Below, one piece after another: positions 7,278 to 62,837 of a stretch of 64,000 nucleotides of DNA; the first letter of the stretch is position 1, and each line of letters opens with the position of its first letter. The position numbers and the translations under genes are program-made. The notes under the pieces are model-generated. The model was not told the DNA's origin. It saw nothing but the letters and a program-made list of their open reading frames with translations, and searched no databases. This DNA comes from Alphaproteobacteria bacterium (GTDB lineage: Bacteria; Pseudomonadota; Alphaproteobacteria; RF32; CAG-239), in the NCBI GenBank assembly GCA_017484225.1, contig JAFUTN010000034.1, positions 17,844-81,843 on the forward strand, given 5' to 3'.

Positions 7278-7411
7278 AATAACCTTAAAAAACCTGAACC
7301 GTGTTTGCGAAGAACACGGCTCAAGCGAAAGGAATTGAGTGCATGGGTACGATATGCACTCAAAGTATGACTTTATTGTTGTTTATTTTCCGGATTGGTT
7401 TCAACAACAAT

Positions 7412-7645
7412 AAAAAGAGACCGCTGACAGGCGGTCGGGAAAGTTCCAAAATCATACACAGTAATGACTCTTTCGGTCTTTAAGCAGAGCTCTGGACATA
7501 CACCGAAAGCTCCCCGACCATTAGTCAGAGATTTTCCGTCCGCATACAGACGGGGAGGAAGATGAATAACCATCTTTTCACTGTGTAAAGGCTTTGGAAA
7601 GCCCCAAGCTTTATCAGCTTTTAACATGAAATAAATTTCATGCCT
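7412..7645 (-). ncRNA. candidate structured small RNA of unknown family (about 230 nt)
   Basis: Minus-strand promoter-like TTGCAT (7674-7679), 16-nt spacer, TATATT (7652-7657). At least six hairpins follow, and a long-range pairing TACACAGT/ACTGTGTA nests around GTCGGGGA...TCCCGAC. The element ends in a strong intrinsic terminator, GACCGC-CTGTCA-GCGGTC followed by TCTTTTT (7412-7436). The overlapping 84-aa ORF has no SD and runs through the terminator. Confidence 0.4.
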
Positions 7646-7742
7646 GACGACAATATATCAGAAAAAAATTTAAATGCAATACTATTTTTAATGGTTTTTA
7701 TATTTTATGGAATAATTTTAATTGAAAAACGATTTTTCCCTC

Positions 7743-12657: not shown

Positions 12658-12940
12658 TTGACAACAAATTTTTTGTATGCTACCATTACGGCAGAATGAT
12701 TTTATATCGTTCCAGAACCTGAAAAAACGGTTCGGGGCTGTCAGAGGCTCTTTGTTCAGTGATACCAAAACAGGTATCCTTTAGGGATGCTTTTTGGTTT
12801 TAAATCCCCGCATTGGTCGGGGAGATTATGACGTATGTTCAAGCTTAATTTTTTGAGCTAAAGGTCATAATAGTCATTCCACTGAACATGATTTCTGAAC
12901 TCCCCTGACCGCTTCAAAAAATTGAGGTGGTTTTTTTTGG
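12658..12940 (+). promoter_or_regulatory. promoter plus structured leader RNA, copy A (variant), ending in an intrinsic terminator
   Basis: TTGACA (12658-12663), 17 nt, TACCAT (12681-12686). Hairpin GAACC-TGAAAAAAC-GGTTC. Helices are TGTTCAGTG/CACTGAACA, GGTCGGGGAG/CTCCCC(T)GACC and ATTATGAC/GTCATAAT. Terminator CCGCTTCAA-AAAA-TTGAGGTGG plus T8 (12909-12938) lies just upstream of the RBS GGGAGA and the ATG at 12965. Confidence 0.65.
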
Positions 12941-12964
12941 TTTTAATTTTATGGGAGAAAGAAA

Positions 12965-13921
12965 ATGAAAAAATTTAGAAACACAGGAAACGTCATTGCG
13001 ATGAGGCGTTTTAACGCCGACGTGGCAATCTCCCTCATCAAGGAAAGTATGAATAAAGAATCCTTATTTACAAGAGCCGCTTGTTTTTGGAGATTGCTAC
13101 GCCTGCGGCTCGCAATGACATTTTCTACTCTTACGTTTGTTTTGAGCCTTGGCACGGTGAGCGAATCGTGGGCGGCGTGTGTTGGGGCAACCGCCACTAC
13201 TGCCGGCACCGATGAGGACGGCGATTACTGCGGCACATGGGATTGCGGCGCTACCGGCAGCAACGTTACCTGTACCCTTTCCAAAGGCACTCTTACCATT
13301 TCCGGAGAAGGCGAAATGAAAGATTATGGTGCTAGTTGGACAGGTTGTGGAACATGCTATCCTAAATCATTGAAAACAACGGCACCTTGGAGTGGAAAAA
13401 TGGCAACTAAAGCAGTTATTGAGGGAAATGTGACCAGAATCGGAAATTTTACATTTGCCGGTGAGAGTTATTTAACCGAAATCAGAGGGACTGAAAGCCT
13501 CATTTCCATTGGTAGCTCGGCATTCAATCGCGTGGGGCTAGTGAGTATAGATATTCCAAACGTATTAACCTTAGATAATGCAGCTTTTCATAGAGCTTCT
13601 GATTTACAATATATTAATATGCGTGACGATATAATTTTAACAAATAATGATTGGTTTGGATATATGAATGGTACATTTTTAAATGTTGATGTAGTAAAAA
13701 ACTCTTGCGTTAGCAATCCGGAAACCGGCATGAAAACTTGCGGGTCATGCGGGGATAAATTTGTTCAAGCAGGTGCAGGATGTGTGGATAATTGTTTTGA
13801 CGGGTATTATGCAACAAATTATGATTTGTGCGAAAAAATCAAACTTCGTTATACCTTACCGGAAGCAGATGCGGCAACATCTGACGACAATGAAAATACG
13901 ATTGAGTGGATTTTTGAGTAA
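12965..13921 (+). CDS. secreted BspA-type LRR / Cys-rich protein with conserved C-terminal tail (paralogue 1)
   Basis: RBS GGGAGAAAG. The hydrophobic signal-like segment sits unusually far in (AMTFSTLTFVLSLGTVSESWAA). Also present: the CTLSKGTLTISGEGEMKDY module, LRR_5-like repeats, a Cys-rich stalk and the tail RYTLPEADAATSDDNENTIEWIFE. Confidence 0.8.
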   Translation: MKKFRNTGNVIAMRRFNADVAISLIKESMNKESLFTRAACFWRLLRLRLAMTFSTLTFVLSLGTVSESWAACVGATATTAGTDEDGDYCGTWDCGATGSNVTCTLSKGTLTISGEGEMKDYGASWTGCGTCYPKSLKTTAPWSGKMATKAVIEGNVTRIGNFTFAGESYLTEIRGTESLISIGSSAFNRVGLVSIDIPNVLTLDNAAFHRASDLQYINMRDDIILTNNDWFGYMNGTFLNVDVVKNSCVSNPETGMKTCGSCGDKFVQAGAGCVDNCFDGYYATNYDLCEKIKLRYTLPEADAATSDDNENTIEWIFE

Positions 13922-14082
13922 TCAGCTTGGCGAAAATTTTTCCGCTTATTCCATATCATAGTTGGGAATCCGGTCAAATTTGTCACACAACGCCTGATAG
14001 GCGGCCGCAATATTTTTGAATTTTTCTTCCGCTTCCTTGTCATCTCGGTTGATATCGGGGTGATATTTTTTTGCCAACTTTT
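13799..14082. repeat. 284-bp segmental duplication, copy 1 (partner 15158-15441)
   Basis: Near-identical to 15158-15441 at a constant offset of 1359 bp, with a handful of substitutions. It covers the last ~40 codons of the paralogue gene, the intergenic spacer and the 3' end of the J-domain gene. Confidence 0.9.
13946..14082 (-). pseudogene. relic 3' fragment of the J-domain protein gene (duplicate of the 15305-15441 region)
   Basis: The minus strand reads ...[44 protein letters not shown], matching the last ~45 residues of CDS 15305-15886. Similarity stops abruptly at 14082 and there is no start codon or N-terminal part. Confidence 0.85.
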
Positions 14083-14143: not shown

Positions 14144-14360
14144 TTGACAACAAATTTTTTTATCTTTATACTCAAAACAGAACATAAAAAGTGTTCTGAG
14201 GTGTGGAAACCTCCTAGAATAATGAAGTGCTTTATGCGCTTTTCAGTTGTGTATGCATGACTGGAAGGCGGTGTAATAAGGCTATATTAATGGTTAAATA
14301 AACCGCACTAAATTCTAGTAGTTTCCAACTTCCAGTCGCTTTTTTAAAGCGATTTTTTGT
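14144..14360 (+). promoter_or_regulatory. promoter plus structured leader RNA, copy B, ending in an intrinsic terminator
   Basis: TTGACA (14144-14149), 17 nt, TATACT (14167-14172). Hairpin GAACA-TAAAAAG-TGTTC. Helices are TGGAAAC/GTTTCCA, CTAGAAT/ATTCTAG, CTGGAAG/CTTCCAG and GCGGT/ACCGC, the last with an ATAAGGCTAT loop. Terminator is CGCTTT-TTT-AAAGCG plus T6. Confidence 0.7.
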
Positions 14361-14392
14361 TTATCAAAATTAAATGGGAAAGGAAAACTAAG

Positions 14393-15280
14393 ATGAAAAA
14401 GATAATTTTTACAGTAATAATGCTTTGCTGTATAACAATAAAATCTATTGCAGATGATTCTGCACCGACATCCGGAACTTGCAATTCTTCCGGAACCTGC
14501 TTGTGGAATCTAAGCGAAGACGGAACCCTGACAATTTCCGCCAAACCGGGGGCGGAAGACGTTAAAACGGACAATTATCGCTGTGATGATGCCAGTGTAT
14601 CAATATGTCGTGAGAGAGGAACTCTTATTGAGAGGCCTTGGGAAGCGAATCTTGAACAAATTAAAAAGGTTGTTATCGGCGATAATATTTCATACATAGG
14701 TGATGATGCCTTTCAGCTGGCTTCAAATTTAAAATCGGTTACCGGCATGAATGATTTGCAATCTATAGGAAACTACGGAGTGTTTGCCTACACCGGTTTA
14801 ACAGAGTTTACTATGCCGGAAAACATTTCTACTGTCGGTAGTCGTGCTTTTGCCTATACTCCTTCATTGAAAAATTTAATTATTCCGGACCAAATTGAAA
14901 CCATAAGTGCAGATTTCTTTCAACATTTGTCTTCCGGTGCAAATATTACGTGCTTGGGAAATATTGCCTCCTGTAATGCAAAATTGGCAAAATTTTTTAA
15001 AAAAACAGATTGCCCTGAAGGTTTTACCTGTAATTGCACAAGTAACTGCATAAAAACAAGCCAAGTAAAACCGGCATCCGAGACTCAATGTATCGGAGTA
15101 AATTATTACTGGAACGGAGTAAGCTGCGATAATAAAAAAGACGGTATAAATTGTGCCGACGGGTATTATGCAACAAATTATGATTTGTGCGAAAAAATCA
15201 AACTTCGTTATACCTTACCGGAAGCAGATGCGGCAACATCTGACGATAATGAAAATATGATTGAGTGGATTTTTGAGTAA
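14393..15280 (+). CDS. secreted BspA-type LRR / Cys-rich protein with conserved C-terminal tail (paralogue 2)
   Basis: The track ORF starts at 14357 inside the leader terminator. The likely start is ATG 14393 (RBS GGGAAAGGAAAA), giving signal peptide MKKIIFTVIMLCCITIKSIA. Also present: the GTCNSSGTCLWNLSEDGTLTISA module, LRR_5-like repeats (IGDDAFQLASNLKSV, VGSRAFAYTPSLKNLIIP), CIGVNYYWNGVSC and the tail RYTLPEADAATSDDNENMIEWIFE. Confidence 0.85.
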   Translation: MKKIIFTVIMLCCITIKSIADDSAPTSGTCNSSGTCLWNLSEDGTLTISAKPGAEDVKTDNYRCDDASVSICRERGTLIERPWEANLEQIKKVVIGDNISYIGDDAFQLASNLKSVTGMNDLQSIGNYGVFAYTGLTEFTMPENISTVGSRAFAYTPSLKNLIIPDQIETISADFFQHLSSGANITCLGNIASCNAKLAKFFKKTDCPEGFTCNCTSNCIKTSQVKPASETQCIGVNYYWNGVSCDNKKDGINCADGYYATNYDLCEKIKLRYTLPEADAATSDDNENMIEWIFE

Positions 15281-15441
15281 TCAGATTGGCGAAAATTTTT
15301 CCGCTTATTCCATATCATAGTTGGGAATCCGGTCAAATTTGTCACACAACGCCTGATAGGCGGCCGAAATATTTTTGAATTTTTCTTCCGCCTCCTTGTC
15401 ATCTCGGTTGATATCGGGGTGATATTTTTTTGCCAACTTTT
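15158..15441. repeat. 284-bp segmental duplication, copy 2 (partner 13799-14082)
   Basis: See copy 1. In this copy the repeat runs into the intact J-domain gene. Confidence 0.9.
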
Positions 15442-23310: not shown

Positions 23311-23551
23311 TTTACAATTAAGCAAAGTTTTGCTAGAATCAGCGGCAGAGCATGAAAAAAGCATGCTTCAGGGCGTAAGAACTCTAAACAAAGATTAGTC
23401 GCGTGTATGCGATTTACAGGTTTTTACCGATATTTCGTTCTTTGTATGGACGGATGTCGGTGCGATAAGGCTATAGGCACGAAAACGCCGAGCCGTCTTT
23501 AATCTTTGTACGGTTTCTTAACATCCGCCCACCGATTTAGGTGGCTTTTTT
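23311..23551 (+). promoter_or_regulatory. promoter plus structured leader RNA, copy C, ending in an intrinsic terminator
   Basis: TTTACA (23311-23316), 17 nt, TAGAAT (23334-23339). Hairpin GCATG-AAAAAAG-CATGC is followed by TTCAGGGCG. Helices are TAAGAA/TTCTTA, ACAAAGATTA/TAATCTTTGT, GGATGT/ACATCC and CGGTG/CGCCG, the last with an ATAAGGCTAT loop. Terminator is CCACC-GATTTA-GGTGG plus CTTTTTT. Confidence 0.75.
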
Positions 23552-23586
23552 ATTAACTTTTTTGATTTAATGAAAGGATGTTTGAG

Positions 23587-24480
23587 ATGAAACATTTAAG
23601 ATTTTTGAGTTTGGTTTTGTTAACGTGCGCAAATTCTGCTACGGCAGCCGAATTGCCCTTAAGCGGCAGCTGCGGAAACGGTTGTTTATATGAAATCACC
23701 ACCAATGCAAACGGCAAAAAAGATTTGCGGGTTTATAACGCCCCGACTTATGAAGGCAAGGCATATATAGCTAATGCAGCGTTTGCAAACAGCGGTGTAA
23801 ATGTTGCCAACAATTATGAAGAATACCATGAAAATGCCGTATTTGATAAAATAACGATTGACGGAGATTTTGATATAATAGGAGGTTCCGCTTTTGAACG
23901 TAACAGAGCAACGGAAGTTGTTTTCAACGGAAAGGTTAGGGAAATAGGATATGGAGCTTTTGAACAAAACAATCTTACCTCCATTGATTTACCGGAGTCT
24001 CTTGAAAAAATCGGCGGAGAGGCTTTTCATGCAAATCCGTTAACAACTTTGGTTATTCCGGATTCGGTAACAAGTTTTGGAAGTTTTGGTAGCTCTACAT
24101 TAGTAAATGTAACAATAACAGATACGCTGGAAAGTTTGGGAACTACTTATCCGTTTGGAGGCAACAGTAATTTATCTATTGTGTGCAAAGGAGATATTGA
24201 AAAGTGCAGAAGTTTGGTCAAAAAATATCGCCCAGATAATATTTCTACTGAAATAGACCTTTCCGGAAATGTTATTGCCGCAACTTATGAGCAATGTGAC
24301 GGGCAATATTTTTGGAACGGTATAGGCTGCGTAAAAGAGCCGGATATATCAAAACGTGCCTGCTGTCCGGTGTGTGCTGATTTAGACGGCTACTGCAGCC
24401 GTATTCGTTATACCTTGCCGGAGGCTGACAAAGCAACATCTGACGATAACGAAAATATGATTGAATGGATTTTTGAGTAA
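23587..24480 (+). CDS. secreted BspA-type LRR / Cys-rich protein with conserved C-terminal tail (paralogue 3)
   Basis: Signal peptide MKHLRFLSLVLLTCANSATA; the second ATG has the better SD spacing (AAAGGA). LRR_5-like repeats (IGGSAFERNRATEVVF, IGYGAFEQNNLTSIDLPESLEKIGGEAFHANPLTTLVIPDSV), CDGQYFWNGIGC...CCPVC, and the tail RYTLPEADKATSDDNENMIEWIFE. Confidence 0.85.
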   Translation: MKHLRFLSLVLLTCANSATAAELPLSGSCGNGCLYEITTNANGKKDLRVYNAPTYEGKAYIANAAFANSGVNVANNYEEYHENAVFDKITIDGDFDIIGGSAFERNRATEVVFNGKVREIGYGAFEQNNLTSIDLPESLEKIGGEAFHANPLTTLVIPDSVTSFGSFGSSTLVNVTITDTLESLGTTYPFGGNSNLSIVCKGDIEKCRSLVKKYRPDNISTEIDLSGNVIAATYEQCDGQYFWNGIGCVKEPDISKRACCPVCADLDGYCSRIRYTLPEADKATSDDNENMIEWIFE

Positions 24481-27380: not shown

Positions 27381-30095
27381 TTAATCGGCTCCGATAACTT
27401 CACGGCGTCCCACACGGTCCGGAGGAGTAACAATACCTTCGTCTTCCATGCGTTCAATCAAAATTGCGGCACGGTTATATCCCAGACGTAATTTGCGTTG
27501 AATATAGCTGGTGGATGCTTTTTTATCGGCTCGCACAATGGCAACGGCTTGGTTATACAGGTCGTCATCATCATTTGCACCGCCCATTTCTCCTTTATCA
27601 AATACAGGTGTGTCTTTGGTGTTGAGTTCACCTTCGGTTACGTCGGAAACATATTGCGGTTCGCCTTGAGACTTAATATATTCCACAACTTTTTCCACTT
27701 CGGCATCAGTGACGAAGCAACCGTGAACTCTGATAGGACGCAAGCCCGATGGCATATAGAGCATATCACCCATTCCCAAAAGCTGCTCGGCACCTTGTTC
27801 ACCTAAAATTGTGCGGCTGTCAATTTTTGTAGTAACGTGAAAACTTATACGACTCGGAAAATTAGCTTTAATTGTTCCGGTAATAACATCAACAGACGGA
27901 CGTTGAGTAGACATAATCAAGTGAATACCGGCAGCACGCGCCATTTGTGCCAAACGCTGAATGGCTGCTTCAACTTCTTTGCCGGCAACCAACATCAAGT
28001 CTGCCATTTCGTCTACCACAATTACGATATACGGTAAAGGTTTTGTATCCACAATTTGCTCTTCGTATATCGGGCGGCCGGTTTCTTTATCAAAACCAAC
28101 CTGAATTGTTTTCTTAATTTCTTTGCCGGATTTACTCATATCGGCAACTTTTTGGTTGTATCCGGCAATGTTGCGCACATTTAACAGAGCCATGGCACGA
28201 TAACGGTCTTCCATTTCGCGCACTGCCCATTTAAGGCCCACAACGGCTTTTGCCGGATCGGTAATAACCGGCGTTAAAAGGTGAGGAATACCGTTATACA
28301 TAGAAAATTCAAGTTGTTTCGGGTCAATCATAATTAATTTGCACTCTTCCGGTGACATTCTGAACAGCAGTGACAAAATCATGGAGTTTACACCTACGGA
28401 TTTACCGGAACCGGTAGTTCCGGCAACCAATAAGTGCGGCATTTTTGATAAGTCGGCATAAACATGCTGTCCGCCGATATCTTTACCTAAAGTTACATTT
28501 AAGATGTTTTTACTGGTCGTAAATTCGGTATCCTCTAAAAGTTCGCGCAACCACACTGTTTCTCTTTTTTCATTCGGAATTTCTATACCTATGGTATTGT
28601 GTCCGCTGACAACCGCCATACGCACGGAAGCAACAGCCATAGAACGAGCAATATCATCAGAAAGGCCGATTACCCGTGCGGTGCGAATTCCCGGAGCCGG
28701 TTCAAGTTCATAAAGTGTTACAACCGGACCGGGGCGAACTTTGACGATTTTACCGTGAATACCGAAATCTTGCAAAACATTTTCCAGCTTTTCGGCAACA
28801 CTTTTTAATTGGTTTTCGTCATACACCGTTGTGTTATTGTTTTGCGGCACGGAAAGCAGGTTAATATCAGGCAGGTGATACATATCGGAAGCTTCCGGTT
28901 GTGTGGGAGTATTAGCAATATTTTGTGTATATTTTTTTGCTTTTACCTCATTTGCCGGAACTTGTTGCTGCAACTCGGTTCCTTCTATTTTTTGCGGATT
29001 AACGGTCAATAAATCCTGCTGCAAAGTTTCACTTTCTTCCTTATTCTGCTTTTTTCTCAAGCCGGATAATTTAGGGAAAAAGCTGCGGATTCCTTCACTT
29101 TGATAAATATCTTCCGGAGTTATTTTTTTGCTGACTTTCTTGTTATTTTGATTTGCGGCATCACTTTCTTTTACAAAATCAAAGGTAGGGTTAAAAGATT
29201 GCTGTAAATTAACGGCAGTGGCCGGTTGCGGTATATCTATTACTTTTTGAGAAGACACGGGTGCTTCTATTTGAATTTGCGGTGCCGGCGATTTTGTTGT
29301 TTCTACCATCGGTTCGCGGCGCTCAAAGGACGGTTCCGTGCGGCGGGAATTTTCTTTTTGTTTTAAGGTGTTTGCCAAATATTCCGGATTCAGCTCTTTA
29401 AATTCGTTAAATTTGCGGATATTCACCAATTTTTTGCCGAGGTTTACAAAAAACATGATTATTTTAGCAAAAATTGAACATATTTTTTTGAATAGCTTTG
29501 CCCATTTGCGTAAAGTGATTCCGGCGGAAAAGTTAAAGGACAGAATGCTTATAAACAGCAGTATTCCGACAATAATCATGGTGTTGTATGTGAAATTAAG
29601 CATATTGATATAAGTATTAATCGGGCGGCTTATGATGCGGCTCCAACTGCCGGTCAAATTGTTGGGCAGATTAAAACGCCCGAGATATTCGCTGAATGTT
29701 ATATCCAAAAAGCAGGCAAAGCACAACAGGCCGACGAACCATGCAAAAATGCGAATCTTGTATTCGGCAAAAGCATTGAAACGGAGCAAATTTATCCCCC
29801 AGATTACGGGAATCGCCAAAAATATGATTAAAGCCAGTCCGAAAGTAGCTAAAATGGCATCAGCGCTGTATGCTCCGAATGTTCCCATAAAATTATGCAC
29901 TTCAGCGGTAGCCGTTTTGTTAAAAGACGGGTCGGAAGAATTGTATCCCATCAGACTCAGCCACAGCAGAATCGGAAAGATAATAAATGCGCTGCCGATT
30001 ATTTTGCACAGCAATATTTGCCACCAACTTTTTTTATGCTCTTCTATTTTTTTCTTAGCCATTTTCTTACTCTTTTTTTCATTTTTCGGAATCAA
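27381..30095 (-). CDS. ftsK: DNA translocase FtsK
   Basis: N-terminal multi-TM domain, a Pro/Gln-rich linker, a motor domain with Walker A AGTTGSGKS and VVDEMADL, and a C-terminal gamma winged helix (SYIQRKLRLGYNRAA). The start may be the downstream Met (MAKKKIEE). Confidence 0.94.
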   Translation of the reverse strand: MIPKNEKKSKKMAKKKIEEHKKSWWQILLCKIIGSAFIIFPILLWLSLMGYNSSDPSFNKTATAEVHNFMGTFGAYSADAILATFGLALIIFLAIPVIWGINLLRFNAFAEYKIRIFAWFVGLLCFACFLDITFSEYLGRFNLPNNLTGSWSRIISRPINTYINMLNFTYNTMIIVGILLFISILSFNFSAGITLRKWAKLFKKICSIFAKIIMFFVNLGKKLVNIRKFNEFKELNPEYLANTLKQKENSRRTEPSFERREPMVETTKSPAPQIQIEAPVSSQKVIDIPQPATAVNLQQSFNPTFDFVKESDAANQNNKKVSKKITPEDIYQSEGIRSFFPKLSGLRKKQNKEESETLQQDLLTVNPQKIEGTELQQQVPANEVKAKKYTQNIANTPTQPEASDMYHLPDINLLSVPQNNNTTVYDENQLKSVAEKLENVLQDFGIHGKIVKVRPGPVVTLYELEPAPGIRTARVIGLSDDIARSMAVASVRMAVVSGHNTIGIEIPNEKRETVWLRELLEDTEFTTSKNILNVTLGKDIGGQHVYADLSKMPHLLVAGTTGSGKSVGVNSMILSLLFRMSPEECKLIMIDPKQLEFSMYNGIPHLLTPVITDPAKAVVGLKWAVREMEDRYRAMALLNVRNIAGYNQKVADMSKSGKEIKKTIQVGFDKETGRPIYEEQIVDTKPLPYIVIVVDEMADLMLVAGKEVEAAIQRLAQMARAAGIHLIMSTQRPSVDVITGTIKANFPSRISFHVTTKIDSRTILGEQGAEQLLGMGDMLYMPSGLRPIRVHGCFVTDAEVEKVVEYIKSQGEPQYVSDVTEGELNTKDTPVFDKGEMGGANDDDDLYNQAVAIVRADKKASTSYIQRKLRLGYNRAAILIERMEDEGIVTPPDRVGRREVIGAD

Positions 30096-30244
30096 CGGAA
30101 TTATAAAGTATAAAATTCAACAAAAGATTAATAAAAGATAAATATCTGCCGATTTTCGGCTTGTTAATAAACATTTATGTTCGGCTTGACTTTTGGAATT
30201 ATGTGACTAAACTCCCGATTAAAATAATTTGGAGATTTATGTAA

Positions 30245-38705: not shown

Positions 38706-39569
38706 TTATTCAAAAATCCATTCAATCATATTTTCATTGTCGTCAGATGTTGCCGCATCCGCTTCCGGCAGGGTGTAACGTTTGCGTAAACATTCGTTAT
38801 ATATGTCGTCATAAGCATAACCGGCTCCACAGCCTGTTCCTTCTCTGATGCAGGTATTATCTTTCAGCACATAGCCCGTTCCGCAGCCTTCCGTATCGTT
38901 TATACATTTCATTTCTTTGCCTAAATAACCGCTTCCGCAGTCAGAAACACATTCAGCTGATTTTACAAAACCGTCACATTTTTTAACGGTTTTTCCGCAA
39001 AGAGAAGTTCCTTGAAAATTTGTGCCGACAAAAATATTATTTGCCGGCAGATTGTTGCCACTAGCACAATTTATCGGTGCTGTTCCTTGATATAAAATCA
39101 CGGCACCGGACGGAACGGAAGTGAAAGCTCCTGTGCCGATAATTTCAACATTCGGCATCTCAACGGACTGTAAGGCAGTGCAATAAAAAAAAGAATCATA
39201 AGGTATTTCCTTAACATCTTTCATTCCCGATACGGTTTTTACGTTTGAGGCATTTTGAAATGCATTTTTGCCTATTTTGGAAATATTGTCTTTAATTACA
39301 ATGTTTTGAATTTGTTTTATATAGTCTTCCCAAGGGCGATTGCCGGCAAGAGCCGAGCAAGTTGAAGCACCTTCGCAAACATAATCATCCATAGACACAT
39401 TTTCAGTTCCTTCAGCGGCGGAAACGGTTAGCGTTCCGGAGGAATCTATTTCCCATAAGCAGGTTCCGCTTGAATTACAAGTGCCGGATACATTTGCATA
39501 AGTGTTTACGGAATACATCATTGATAAAAAAGTAAAATTAAGCAATTTAAAATGTTTCATATCAAACAT
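38706..39569 (-). CDS. secreted BspA-type LRR / Cys-rich protein with conserved C-terminal tail (paralogue 4)
   Basis: Signal peptide MKHFKLLNFTFLSMMYSVNTYA, the SGTCNSSGTCLWEIDSSGTLTVSA module, LRR_5-like repeats (IGKNAFQNASNVKTVSGM), four CxxGY Cys-rich modules, and the tail RYTLPEADAATSDDNENMIEWIFE. Confidence 0.85.
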   Translation of the reverse strand: MFDMKHFKLLNFTFLSMMYSVNTYANVSGTCNSSGTCLWEIDSSGTLTVSAAEGTENVSMDDYVCEGASTCSALAGNRPWEDYIKQIQNIVIKDNISKIGKNAFQNASNVKTVSGMKDVKEIPYDSFFYCTALQSVEMPNVEIIGTGAFTSVPSGAVILYQGTAPINCASGNNLPANNIFVGTNFQGTSLCGKTVKKCDGFVKSAECVSDCGSGYLGKEMKCINDTEGCGTGYVLKDNTCIREGTGCGAGYAYDDIYNECLRKRYTLPEADAATSDDNENMIEWIFE

Positions 39570-39593
39570 CCTTTCATTAAGTTAAAAAGTTAA

Positions 39594-39825
39594 CAAAAAA
39601 GCCACCTGAAATGGTGGGCGGATGTTGAGAAACCGTACTAAACTAAACGGCTCGGCGTTTTCGCGCTCATAGCCTTATCAAGCCGACATCCGCTCAAATT
39701 TGAACGAATCATCGGAAAAATATTTAATGCCGTGTTGCGGCAAGTTTAGTAAAGGGTTCTCACGCCCTGAAGTGCGTTTTTTCGCACTCTGAAATCAGGT
39801 TATCAAAATATCGCCGTAATGTAAA
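39594..39825 (-). promoter_or_regulatory. promoter plus structured leader RNA, copy D, ending in an intrinsic terminator
   Basis: On the minus strand: TTTACA (39820-39825), 17 nt, TAACCT (39797-39802). Hairpin AGTGCG-AAAAAA-CGCACT is followed by TCAGGGCG. Helices are TGAGAA/TTCTCA, TACTAAAC/GTTTAGTA, GGATGT/ACATCC and CGGC/GCCG, the last with an ATAAGGCTAT loop. Terminator is CCACC-ATTTCA-GGTGG plus CTTTTTT. Confidence 0.75.
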
Positions 39826-44740: not shown

Positions 44741-44769
44741 TTTGTGTCCTTTTAACCATAAAGTTTAAG

Positions 44770-61706: not shown

Positions 61707-61930
61707 TTTACAATCAAACATTGTTCTGCTATTGTTCATTCAGGACGTGGAAAAAACACGTTTCAGGGCGTAGTAACCCTTATACATGAATTTAGCGATA
61801 TTTAATCGTGCTGATGTTCGCATATTTTGTGAGCGGATGTCAGCCGAATAAGGCTATGCCAAATAGGCTGAGCCGTTTTCATGTATACGGTTTACTAACA
61901 TCCGCCCGCCATTTCGGTGGGATTTTTTTT
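61707..61930 (+). promoter_or_regulatory. promoter plus structured leader RNA, copy E, ending in an intrinsic terminator
   Basis: TTTACA (61707-61712), 17 nt, TATTGT (61730-61735). Hairpin ACGTG-GAAAAAA-CACGT is followed by TTCAGGGCG. Helices are TAGTAA/TTACTA, TATACATGAA/TTCATGTATA, GGATGT/ACATCC and CAGCC/GGCTG, the last with an ATAAGGCTAT loop. Terminator is CCCGCC-ATTTC-GGTGGG plus AT8. Confidence 0.75.
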
Positions 61931-61964
61931 GTTAACTTTTTACTTTAAGAAAAGGATGTATGAA

Positions 61965-62837
61965 ATGAGATATTGCATTTTGGGGATTTTAAGTTTGTTT
62001 TTTACGATTGGGCAGGCAAATGCCGAGGTTATAAGCTGCAATAACGGCAAATATGCGGACGGGACGGATTGTGTGTCCTGCGGAGCGGATTGTAACTGGA
62101 GTGTGGACTTGACAAGCGGAAAGCTTACGGTCAGCGGAAGCGGAAATATGAATAATTACCGTTTTTATACGGAAGATGACATAAATTATTCGTCCGCGCC
62201 GTGGGGAGGCTATAAAGACCGGATTACAGCAGTAGAGGTATCCGGAATGAACAGTATAGGTTCGTGTGCATTCTGCCATTTAGCTGTCAACAGCATACAA
62301 ATGGATGATTCCGTTAAAAAAATAAATGACAGCGCTTTCGCATGGAATGGTCGCGGTGCATCATCTGTTACTATGTCCGACGCATTAACGGATTTAGGCC
62401 ATATTGCTTTCAGAGGAAACAGCAGACTTAATACCCTTATCGTGCCGGCAACGTTAACGAATATCGGTTTAGGAGCGTTGGGTGGCAATAAAAACTTAAT
62501 CAAAGATATGAACATAGTATGTATGGGCGGCAAGCAAGAATGTGCATTGTTGCAAGAACGTTTACAAAACTATCAATTTTACGGTCTTGATTATTCAAGG
62601 GAGGTTTTGGACTTGTCCGCCAACGTAAGACTTGCCGGTGCCGAGGAATGTTTTTCAACAAATTATTATTGGAACGGGGCCGAATGTTTGAAAGAACCGG
62701 TATTGGCAAATCGTTTGTGTTGTCCGGAGTGTAAGATGATTGACGGAGAGTGTTACCGTGTTCGTTATACTTTGCCGGAAGCGGATGAGGTGACGTCCAA
62801 TGATAATGAGAATCTGATTGAATGGATATTTAATTAA
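61965..62837 (+). CDS. secreted BspA-type LRR / Cys-rich protein with conserved C-terminal tail (paralogue 5)
   Basis: The track start at 61917 lies inside the leader terminator. The likely start is ATG 61965 or 61956 (AAAAGGA), giving signal peptide MRYCILGILSLFFTIGQANA. Also present: the CGADCNWSVDLTSGKLTVSGSGNMNNY module, LRR_5-like repeats, CFSTNYYWNGAEC...CCPEC and the tail RYTLPEADEVTSNDNENLIEWIFN. Confidence 0.85.
   Translation: MRYCILGILSLFFTIGQANAEVISCNNGKYADGTDCVSCGADCNWSVDLTSGKLTVSGSGNMNNYRFYTEDDINYSSAPWGGYKDRITAVEVSGMNSIGSCAFCHLAVNSIQMDDSVKKINDSAFAWNGRGASSVTMSDALTDLGHIAFRGNSRLNTLIVPATLTNIGLGALGGNKNLIKDMNIVCMGGKQECALLQERLQNYQFYGLDYSREVLDLSANVRLAGAEECFSTNYYWNGAECLKEPVLANRLCCPECKMIDGECYRVRYTLPEADEVTSNDNENLIEWIFN

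Follow-up and report, generated by a model that had tools for sequence, protein, structure and literature searches.

What is the structured RNA that stands in front of five paralogous genes of a gut alphaproteobacterium, and what does it do? The question is raised by a stretch of 64,000 nucleotides (nt) of contig JAFUTN010000034.1 (hereafter the window), in which an earlier note had described five copies, A to E, of a pseudoknotted leader RNA with a terminator and had proposed a candidate riboswitch-like or attenuator element. Our analysis somewhat favours a new family of cis-acting terminator/antiterminator/anti-antiterminator leaders, which would control a cell-surface regulon. The attenuator half of the proposal is supported by the anatomy of the leader, while the riboswitch half is unproven, the set of downstream genes indicating no metabolite.

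The five copies occur at the positions and on the strands first given for them, as reading of all five regions bore out (Table 1), and each follows the order promoter, 5' hairpin with an A-rich loop, core of about 150 nt, terminator, ribosome-binding site (RBS) and ATG. The strings that had been listed for helices b-g, c-f and d-h, for hairpin e and for the 5' hairpins were all read back in the window, as was the ATAAGGCTAT loop in copies B to E. A consensus scan recovers the sigma-70-like promoters (TTGACA or TTTACA, 17 nt, TAnnnT) and the terminators of copies A, B and C; those of copies D and E are visible on reading the sequence. The minimum free energy z-scores of the five leaders lie between -4.1 and -8.0, and 0 of 200 shuffles were equally stable. 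The copies sit amid chromosomal housekeeping genes, for example dnaA, dnaN, polA and adhE, and the proteins encoded after them are paralogous BspA-type LRR_5 proteins with a common C-terminal tail. The earlier note knew of no family to which the leader belongs, and a cmscan of the window at the gathering thresholds of Rfam 15 agrees, passing only transfer-messenger RNA (tmRNA) and 6S RNA. In 17 other loci bearing the element, the same database and threshold yielded only rRNA and tRNA.

The leader is a member of a large multi-copy family and is not local to the window. A profile built from the five copies matches upstream of every leucine-rich repeat (LRR) paralogue on related contigs. Three subtypes were distinguished, which have one architecture and share little sequence: subtype I comprises copies C, D and E, subtype B copy B and about ten relatives, and subtype A copy A, a gene-less copy described below and a few relatives. 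The exact pattern GGATGTC-N6-ATAAGG-N35-65-AACATCCGCC, taken from subtype I, was found at more than 106 loci among GTDB species representatives and on more than 120 metagenome contigs, both figures being minima from the matches listed. Nearly all of the listed GTDB loci belong to gut or rumen metagenome-assembled genomes (MAGs) named 'Alphaproteobacteria bacterium', from human, cattle, sheep, deer, horse and mouse hosts; 'Azospirillum sp. UMGS63' and 'Acetobacter sp. CAG:977' are also among the matching MAGs. The MAG CAVGVF01 carries the element on at least 10 contigs. The window is itself found as metagenome contig k141_390166 of ERZ27256838 in ENA, and in the sample from which it comes, further pairs of leader and LRR gene occur on loci L006 (ERZ27256838 k141_360641) and L009 (k141_390164), one of them directly 3' of a ribosomal protein operon; if both loci belong to the same genome as the window, that genome holds at least 10 copies. 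The covariance model that had been suggested as a check was built from subtype I only. Copies C, D and E score 121-136 bits against it, and copy B, which the model does not contain, scores 31.5 bits (E 6e-7). A search of their 6-kb region with filters off ranks copy A (15.8 bits) and the gene-less copy (15.1 bits) above all other matches.

The statistics that follow were obtained from 148 distinct subtype I leaders of other genomes, retained after removal of near-duplicates, and segments are lettered as in Table 1. The order promoter, 5' hairpin, core, intrinsic terminator and RBS is invariant across these copies. The promoter that matches best has a spacer of 17 nt in 110 of them, and in 108 its -10 box ends 5-9 nt ahead of the first paired base of the 5'-terminal hairpin P1. 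Hairpin P1 averages 8.6 bp, with a mean energy of -8.8 kcal/mol, and ends 1 nt ahead of the invariant GGGCGU. All 148 copies carry a terminator hairpin, of 7.8 bp and -11.6 kcal/mol on average; its stem begins at the G right after ACAUCC in 138/148, and at least six U residues fall within the next 9 nt in 145/148. Downstream, 139/148 copies have a same-strand open reading frame (ORF) with a Shine-Dalgarno sequence, a Rho-independent terminator being interposed between leader and RBS. The start codon follows the end of h at a median of 53 nt and lies about 20 nt past the U-tract. As this gap leaves no space for a second promoter, the gene would be transcribed only by read-through of the terminator. 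No conserved reading frame, as would suit leader-peptide attenuation, was seen in the leader by eye.

Covariation was counted in a MAFFT alignment (A3) made without structural input, to which all column numbers refer. Helices b-g, c-f and e, for which compensatory changes among the window copies had been cited, covary strongly in the 148 relatives. At its three variable positions, helix b-g is paired in all 148 copies, and 59, 69 and 83 double changes are seen there. The sequence of c-f is different at almost every locus, with 33-65 double changes per pair, and in a duplex test free of any alignment segment c binds its own partner with -13.3 kcal/mol as against -5.8 kcal/mol for the partners of other leaders; its own f ranked first or tied for first in 75/148 and within the top five in 125/148. 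The rod fold to which these helices belong is found unprompted by RNAalifold. Hairpin x shows covariation at all six pairs, and hairpin y covaries at columns 144/194 (CG 113, UA 20, UG 15, unpaired 0), 142/199, 162/185 and 163/184.

A second set of helices is likewise supported. Hairpin e covaries at columns 194/233 (GC 111, AU 20, GU 17, unpaired 0), 199/231 and 200/230, and hairpin i at 239/267 (GC 125, AU 22). In the local helix a-a' (N-GGG ... CCC-N), the closing pair is canonical in 143/148 copies, compared with 124.9 +/- 1.6 in shuffles, and shows 11 double changes. Columns 194 and 199 each covary with two partners, one in y and one in e; the loop of hairpin i is segment f, and bases of i are shared with the extension of b-g; a-a' takes the G residues that otherwise pair with h. 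Because bases are shared between the two sets in these ways, the rod and the alternative fold are mutually exclusive, and each is under selection, as in an attenuator. The crossing of d-h with b-g and c-f had been read as either a pseudoknot or two exclusive folds. The two-partner columns together with y, i and a-a' speak for the second option, and a static pseudoknot fits less well. The compensation claimed for d-h itself holds only between subtypes, where the two strands change jointly: GGAUGU/ACAUCC in subtype I, CUGGAAG/CUUCCAG or CCGGAAG/CUUCCGG in subtype B, and GGUCGGGGAG/CUCCCCUGACC or GGAUGGGGAG/CUCCCCGCCC in subtype A. Within subtype I the helix is invariant and shows no covariation. 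As a lead only, the loop of x (GCAUA) could form a 5-bp pseudoknot with UAUGC further 3', which is about 90% paired with modest covariation. A small inner hairpin within e (columns 222-224 with 230-232) was considered and dropped, being paired in only 62%.

A further property of attenuators, an alternative helix that overlaps the 5' arm of the terminator, was found for d-h and also for GGGCG/CGCCC. In subtype B, d-h has 9 bp, and its last three pairs take the first 2-3 nt of the terminator 5' arm. As read from the sequences, these positions covary (GAC/GUC, AGC/GCU, GGC/GCC, GGU/ACC), and pairing of these very nucleotides is also required in the terminator stem beside the U-tract. In intrinsic termination, it is the completion of the stem base that releases the transcript. 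In subtype I, C186-G283 is always paired, followed by two positions at which pairing occurs in 48% and 81% of copies. The pairing of GGGCG with CGCCC, which had been proposed for copies C, D and E, is picked unprompted by RNAalifold; being invariant, it is beyond the support of covariation. Before the terminator 3' arm exists, GGGCG/CGCCC beats the slipped register GGGCGU/ACAUCC by 3.9 +/- 0.5 kcal/mol (141/141), and once the 3' arm is present the terminator with the slipped register is ahead by only 2.7 +/- 2.0 kcal/mol. With so small a difference between the GGGCG register and the terminator, the termination decision is finely balanced.

The genes downstream of the family form a cell-surface or host-interface repertoire and not a metabolic pathway. 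A Pfam scan of 132 downstream proteins identified LRR_5 in 12, and also outer-membrane beta-barrel, Opacity and OmpA families, the pilins PilS and Bundlin, PEGA, several glycosyltransferase families, Stealth, acyltransferase, sulfatase and an EcoRI-type methylase. A prepilin-like GRSMIEML motif occurs in 30 of the downstream proteins and a lipobox-like motif in 14. The association with LRR and Cys-rich genes that had been noted is therefore true of the window, where all five genes encode LRR_5 proteins, and too narrow elsewhere, where the element fronts a broad set of cell-surface genes. These genes do not point to one metabolite or ion, as would be looked for with a riboswitch, and fit a signalling molecule at best.

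From these features the following mechanism can be proposed. A sigma-70-type promoter would start transcription at the base of P1, and the leader of about 190 nt would pick between two mutually exclusive folds. The rod is the predicted ground state, with a-h, b-g and c-f closing a junction that bears hairpins x and y. In it y would hide d and a would hide h, the terminator, whose sequence starts directly 3' of h, could form completely, and transcription would stop about 20 nt before the RBS, leaving the gene off. In the alternative fold y would open, e, i and a-a' would form, and d would pair with h, extending into the first 2-3 nt of the terminator 5' arm (the stem-base pairs by the U-tract) and so permitting read-through, with the gene on. 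Helix d-h would then be the antiterminator, y and a-h the anti-antiterminator, and the 3' hairpin the terminator. In subtype I, GGGCG could additionally slide onto CGCCC at the terminator base, which would place the read-through decision within about 3 kcal/mol. A common factor is presumed to read the invariant AGGGCGU, CGGAUGUC, AUAAGG, GAGCC and AACAUCCGCCC and to select the fold; since it should recognise these shared invariant nucleotides, a protein, a small ligand and a second RNA are all candidates. One such factor would co-regulate at least 10 surface-related genes per genome. In this scheme, the layout, the covariation of both helix sets and their overlap with the terminator are observed; the assignment of the on state, the regulation of read-through and the nature of the signal are what we infer.

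Several points weigh against such a switch, which is read from sequence and computed folds. Helices d-h, a-h and GGGCG/CGCCC lack covariation within subtype I, being invariant there, and the extension of d-h into the subtype I terminator is imperfect at its outer positions (81% and 48%). Hairpin i is hard to fit into any single model. In 147/148 copies the full alternative fold is predicted to be less stable than the rod by 16-18 kcal/mol, so that it needs a strong stabiliser or a kinetic route, and in equilibrium folds constrained to d-h the terminator persists in 97/148. These two results do not support the full alternative fold as a plain equilibrium antiterminator. A hybrid that keeps b-g and c-f, with e replacing the outer part of y, would cost only about 8 kcal/mol, the x-loop pseudoknot uncounted. 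A sixth, gene-less copy is a further difficulty. The profile built from the five copies matches it over about 7421-7609 on the minus strand, between polA and a convergent phosphoribosyltransferase gene, and it has a promoter-like site (TTGCAT, 16 nt, TATATT) and its own terminator. It is kept in two other loci (L002 and L003), where c-f shows compensatory changes; in L002 the region is annotated as an 84-aa ORF, a call that is probably spurious. Conservation of a gene-less copy with compensatory changes argues for an additional, independent role of the RNA itself.

The attenuation leader may, more tentatively, be specified as the sensor of a hitherto unknown regulatory system. It would then be a riboswitch of a new class that binds a signalling molecule, or else the RNA to which a dedicated antiterminator protein binds. 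Combining an invariant recognition core with locus-specific 'barcode' helices, it would switch the entire surface repertoire on or off at 10 or more loci per genome, upstream of adhesin-like LRR proteins, pilins, porins and glycan-modifying enzymes. Multi-copy cyclic di-GMP riboswitch regulons, such as those of Clostridioides difficile, lie upstream of pilin, adhesin and surface genes and are terminator-based. The present family resembles them in that one RNA element is repeated before many surface-protein genes, but the leader matches neither the GEMM-I nor the GEMM-II model of Rfam and differs in size and architecture.

With classical attenuators (transcriptional riboswitches, T-box, BglG/SacY-RAT, PyrR and TRAP), the family shares a promoter-proximal structured leader with the terminator before the RBS, an antiterminator helix (d-h) overlapping the terminator 5' arm and sequestered by y and a-h, and multiple copies per genome in the manner of a regulon. 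It departs from them in matching no curated family, in preceding genes for surface components and not for a metabolic pathway, in the long closing helices that differ at each locus like barcodes, and, in subtype I, in the GGGCG register shift between ACAUCC and CGCCC. A terminator-containing regulatory leader is thus of a well-known kind, whereas this RNA family, its three-way pairing logic, its barcode helices and its link to a surface regulon are undescribed in Rfam 15 and in the literature searched. In the main text of the survey of human-microbiome structured RNAs by Fremin and Bhatt, Alphaproteobacteria, Proteobacteria, Azospirillum and pilins are unmentioned.

The gene-less copy bears most directly on the possibility that the RNA is mainly an abundant trans-acting or dual-function small RNA (sRNA) of about 190 nt, for example a base-pairing regulator or a protein sponge, with the gene expressed only by leaky read-through. 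We regard this as unlikely. Its own promoter and a strong terminator make each copy a complete transcription unit, a copy that lacks a gene has been retained, with compensatory changes in c-f, in three related genomes, and the 3' domain has the architecture of the trans-acting sRNA-Xcc1 and C4 RNAs (27-31 bits). However, 139/148 copies stand directly upstream of a same-strand gene, with the RBS about 20 nt beyond the terminator; the variable segments b, c, f and g pair intramolecularly and have no complementarity to the downstream mRNA; and no target in trans is known. An sRNA role would also be compatible with regulation in cis. A similar layout in another alphaproteobacterium, which also favours an sRNA, is seen in the Brt family of Bartonella (PMC5387305). 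The nine Brt RNAs, of 194-203 nt, are each located upstream of a trp gene encoding a helix-turn-helix (HTH) regulator and have reported folding energies of -56 to -86 kcal/mol, their own promoter and a 3' terminator-like structure; a dual role as sRNA and riboswitch-like attenuator has been proposed for them (PMC5387305). They are reported to be confined to the genus Bartonella, and the copies are 74-100% identical (PMC5387305). By description, both families are alphaproteobacterial, multi-copy and structured, about 200 nt in length, with promoter, terminator and a gene in tandem; unlike Brt, the family analysed here precedes surface genes, is far more diverse and has covariation support. An HTH regulator is absent from the downstream Pfam families listed (the 25 most frequent of 33).

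Less probable still is a constitutive structured 5' untranslated region, acting as a stabiliser of the mRNA or as a processive antiterminator like put of HK022 or EAR of Bacillus, with the terminator serving as insulator or checkpoint. The 5'-terminal hairpin right at the predicted transcription start would suit such an element. Long stabilising leaders or processive antitermination are used by genes of such kinds as those for pilins, outer-membrane proteins and polysaccharide enzymes, and RfaH, UpxY, LoaP and EAR are examples of processive antitermination of surface or polysaccharide-type genes. Moreover, neither fold clearly abolishes the terminator at equilibrium. Selection on two incompatible sets of helices, seen at columns 194/199 and in a-a' versus a-h, is nevertheless not expected of a static element, the overlap of d-h with the terminator base covaries in subtype B, and no Rfam family is matched at threshold.

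An antisense RNA of the C4 or sRNA-Xcc1 type, encoded within the leader of the gene that it targets, as in P1 c4-icd-ant, whose released 3' domain would pair through its loops with the RBS region, appears improbable. Sub-threshold matches speak for it: in permissive mode, sRNA-Xcc1 (RF02221) gives 27.4 bits for copy C (over its 3' domain, 23448-23538), 30.5 for D and 31.2 for E against a cut-off of 53, with no match for A and B, and C4 antisense RNA (RF01695) matches only copy E, with 25.7 bits against a cut-off of 45. These scores are far under the gathering cut-offs. The likeness, a resemblance only, consists in a 3' domain (d, e, i, h) built as an outer stem around two hairpins, the first loop beginning AUA and the second hairpin reading CCGU...ACGG, with a C-rich tail. 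Here, unlike in those RNAs, the domain sits within a leader twice its size, phage or integron context is absent, and the loops do not target the downstream RBS. When loop f and segment c were compared with the 95 nt downstream, the own partner scored -7.3 and other partners -6.9 kcal/mol; targeting of the RBS by these segments, in the manner of P1 c4, was rejected because own and other partners score alike. C4 and Xcc1 are elements of phages and integrons, but the subtype I element has no match in 2.9 million viral contigs, on which ground a phage or integron origin was rejected as well. Also in favour of an antisense mechanism, h (AACAUCC) is complementary to the RBS motif GG(N0-2)GUU, which is present in 65% of leader genes as against 11% of the 1,266 control genes located at the leader loci. 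This complementarity may constitute a second, translational layer of control, or may merely reflect shared ancestry, that is, inheritance among paralogues.

Finally, the notion that the inverted repeats (a, b, c versus f, g, h) are sites of an invertible element or of surface-gene shuffling, suggested by imperfect repeats of 25-30 bp around a segment of about 130 bp, multi-copy and upstream of surface genes of often phase-variable kinds, is hardly credible and was rejected on strand asymmetry and G-U content, for the pairing acts at the RNA and not the DNA level (in 146/148 the reverse complement is less stable than the forward strand, by 11 kcal/mol, and G-U pairs make up about 10% of those predicted), numerous short local hairpins covary too, the promoter lies outside the repeats, and an inverted inner segment is found in none of about 240 loci.

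If attenuation is the correct reading, it would bring within reach the biology of a group of uncultured and essentially unstudied gut and rumen Alphaproteobacteria. Since every gene preceded by the leader would then belong to it, a probable surface and host-interaction regulon would be obtained in one step. The leader would offer a testable RNA of 190 nt with a clear mutational design, in which each helix has a defined competitor, and a large covariation-supported family would join the short list of 'orphan' leaders, the identification of whose ligands or proteins has repeatedly exposed new signalling chemistry. Covarying closing helices that differ from locus to locus, set about an invariant core, would also be an unusually clean natural case of many paralogous switches that share one cell and avoid cross-pairing.

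Table 1. Leader copies, their genes and the anatomy of copy C, in window coordinates.
Feature	Position	Strand	Support
Gene-less sixth copy, subtype-A-like	7405..7679	-	z -6.0; 15.1 bits
Copy A, subtype A: GGGGCUGUCAGA ... GGUCGGGGAG ... CUCCCCUGACC	12658..12942	+	z -8.0; 15.8 bits
Gene A (LRR_5)	12965-13921	+	
Copy B, subtype B: GAGGUGU ... CUGGAAGG ... ACUUCCAG	14144..14362	+	z -6.3; ~10 relatives
Gene B (LRR_5)	14393-15280	+	
Copy C, promoter TTTACA, 17 nt, TAGAAT, TG extension	23311..23339	+	consensus scan
Copy C (subtype I), leader RNA, predicted transcription start to terminator U-tract	23346..23552	+	z -4.1; covariance model 125.7 bits
Copy C, P1, 5'-terminal hairpin GAGCAUG-AAAAAAG-CAUGCUU	23348..23368	+	predicted fold
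Copy C, segment a, GGGCGU, invariant; possible partners h (ACAUCC), CGCCC at terminator base, or local CCCU (a-a')	23371..23376	+	
Copy C, segment b, UAAGAA, partner g	23376..23381	+	100% paired in relatives
Copy C, segment c, ACAAAGAUUA, partner f	23388..23397	+	
Copy C, hairpin x, UCGC-GUGUAU-GCGA	23399..23412	+	all 6 pairs covary
Copy C, hairpin y, 5' arm ACCGAUAUUUCGUUC with GGACGGAUGUCGGU	23426..23461	+	sequesters d and 5' arm of e
Copy C, segment d, GGAUGU, invariant; partner h in alternative fold	23452..23457	+	
Copy C, hairpin e, CGGUG ... CGCCG; loop holds AUAAGGCUAU at 23465-23474	23458..23490	+	
Copy C, hairpin i, AGCCGU ... ACGGUU; loop is f (UAAUCUUUGU, 23500-23509)	23491..23515	+	
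Copy C, g (UUCUUA), h (ACAUCC, 23521-23526) and CGCCC (23526-23530)	23515..23530	+	
Copy C, intrinsic terminator GCC(C)ACC-GAUUUA-GGUGGC + U6	23527..23551	+	consensus scan, fold
RBS (AAGGAUGUU) and LRR_5 gene C, ATG at 23587	23574..24480	+	
Gene D (LRR_5)	38706-39560	-	
Copy D, subtype I, promoter, leader and terminator	39593..39825	-	z -5.4; covariance model 135.5 bits
Copy E, subtype I	61707..61932	+	z -6.3; covariance model 121.1 bits
Gene E (LRR_5)	61965-62837	+	

Some observations on the proteins and flanks of the five window genes may be added. The tail RYTLPEADAATSDDNENMIEWIFE (24 residues) is nearly identical at the end of all five LRR_5 paralogues and is preceded by Cys-rich segments; it is covered by no Pfam or NCBIfam model and may be a sorting or secretion tag. 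A scan of GTDB genomes that used only the C-terminal tail of the five paralogues as its pattern gave no match, and ...EWIF is also terminal in 9 of the 132 leader-associated proteins elsewhere. The same 28-nt hairpin followed by a T-run (TGTCATCTCGGTTGATATCGGGGTGATA TTTTTTTGCC) occurs at 14038-14075 and 15397-15434 on the plus strand, about 117 nt 3' of the stop codons of genes A and B. As an identical hairpin lies 3' of both genes, the duplicated A/B unit spans 3' flank, terminator and leader.

The RBS regions of leader genes (23574-23589 in the window, and equivalents) often read ACAAGGAUGUU or ACGGAGUU. Segment d (ACGGAUGU) and these RBS motifs resemble the CsrA/RsmE consensus A(N)GGA (RUACARGGAUGU in selection experiments of the SELEX type), a lead only. 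CsrA, Hfq and RfaH were looked for in 1.8 Mb of sampled loci, an uninformative sample, in which one NusG only was found.

Other RNAs are encoded in the window. A DUF805b RNA was matched below threshold at 30064-30099 on the minus strand (19.8 bits against a cut-off of 35.6, E 0.53). A permuted, two-piece tmRNA of alphaproteobacterial type lies at 44765-45102 on the minus strand (RF01849, 220.5 bits) and encodes the tag peptide ANDNFAPVAVAA. The 6S RNA (RF00013, 66.2 bits) is located at 51531-51687 on the minus strand, directly 3' of an ORF of 2103 aa (45127-51438, minus strand).

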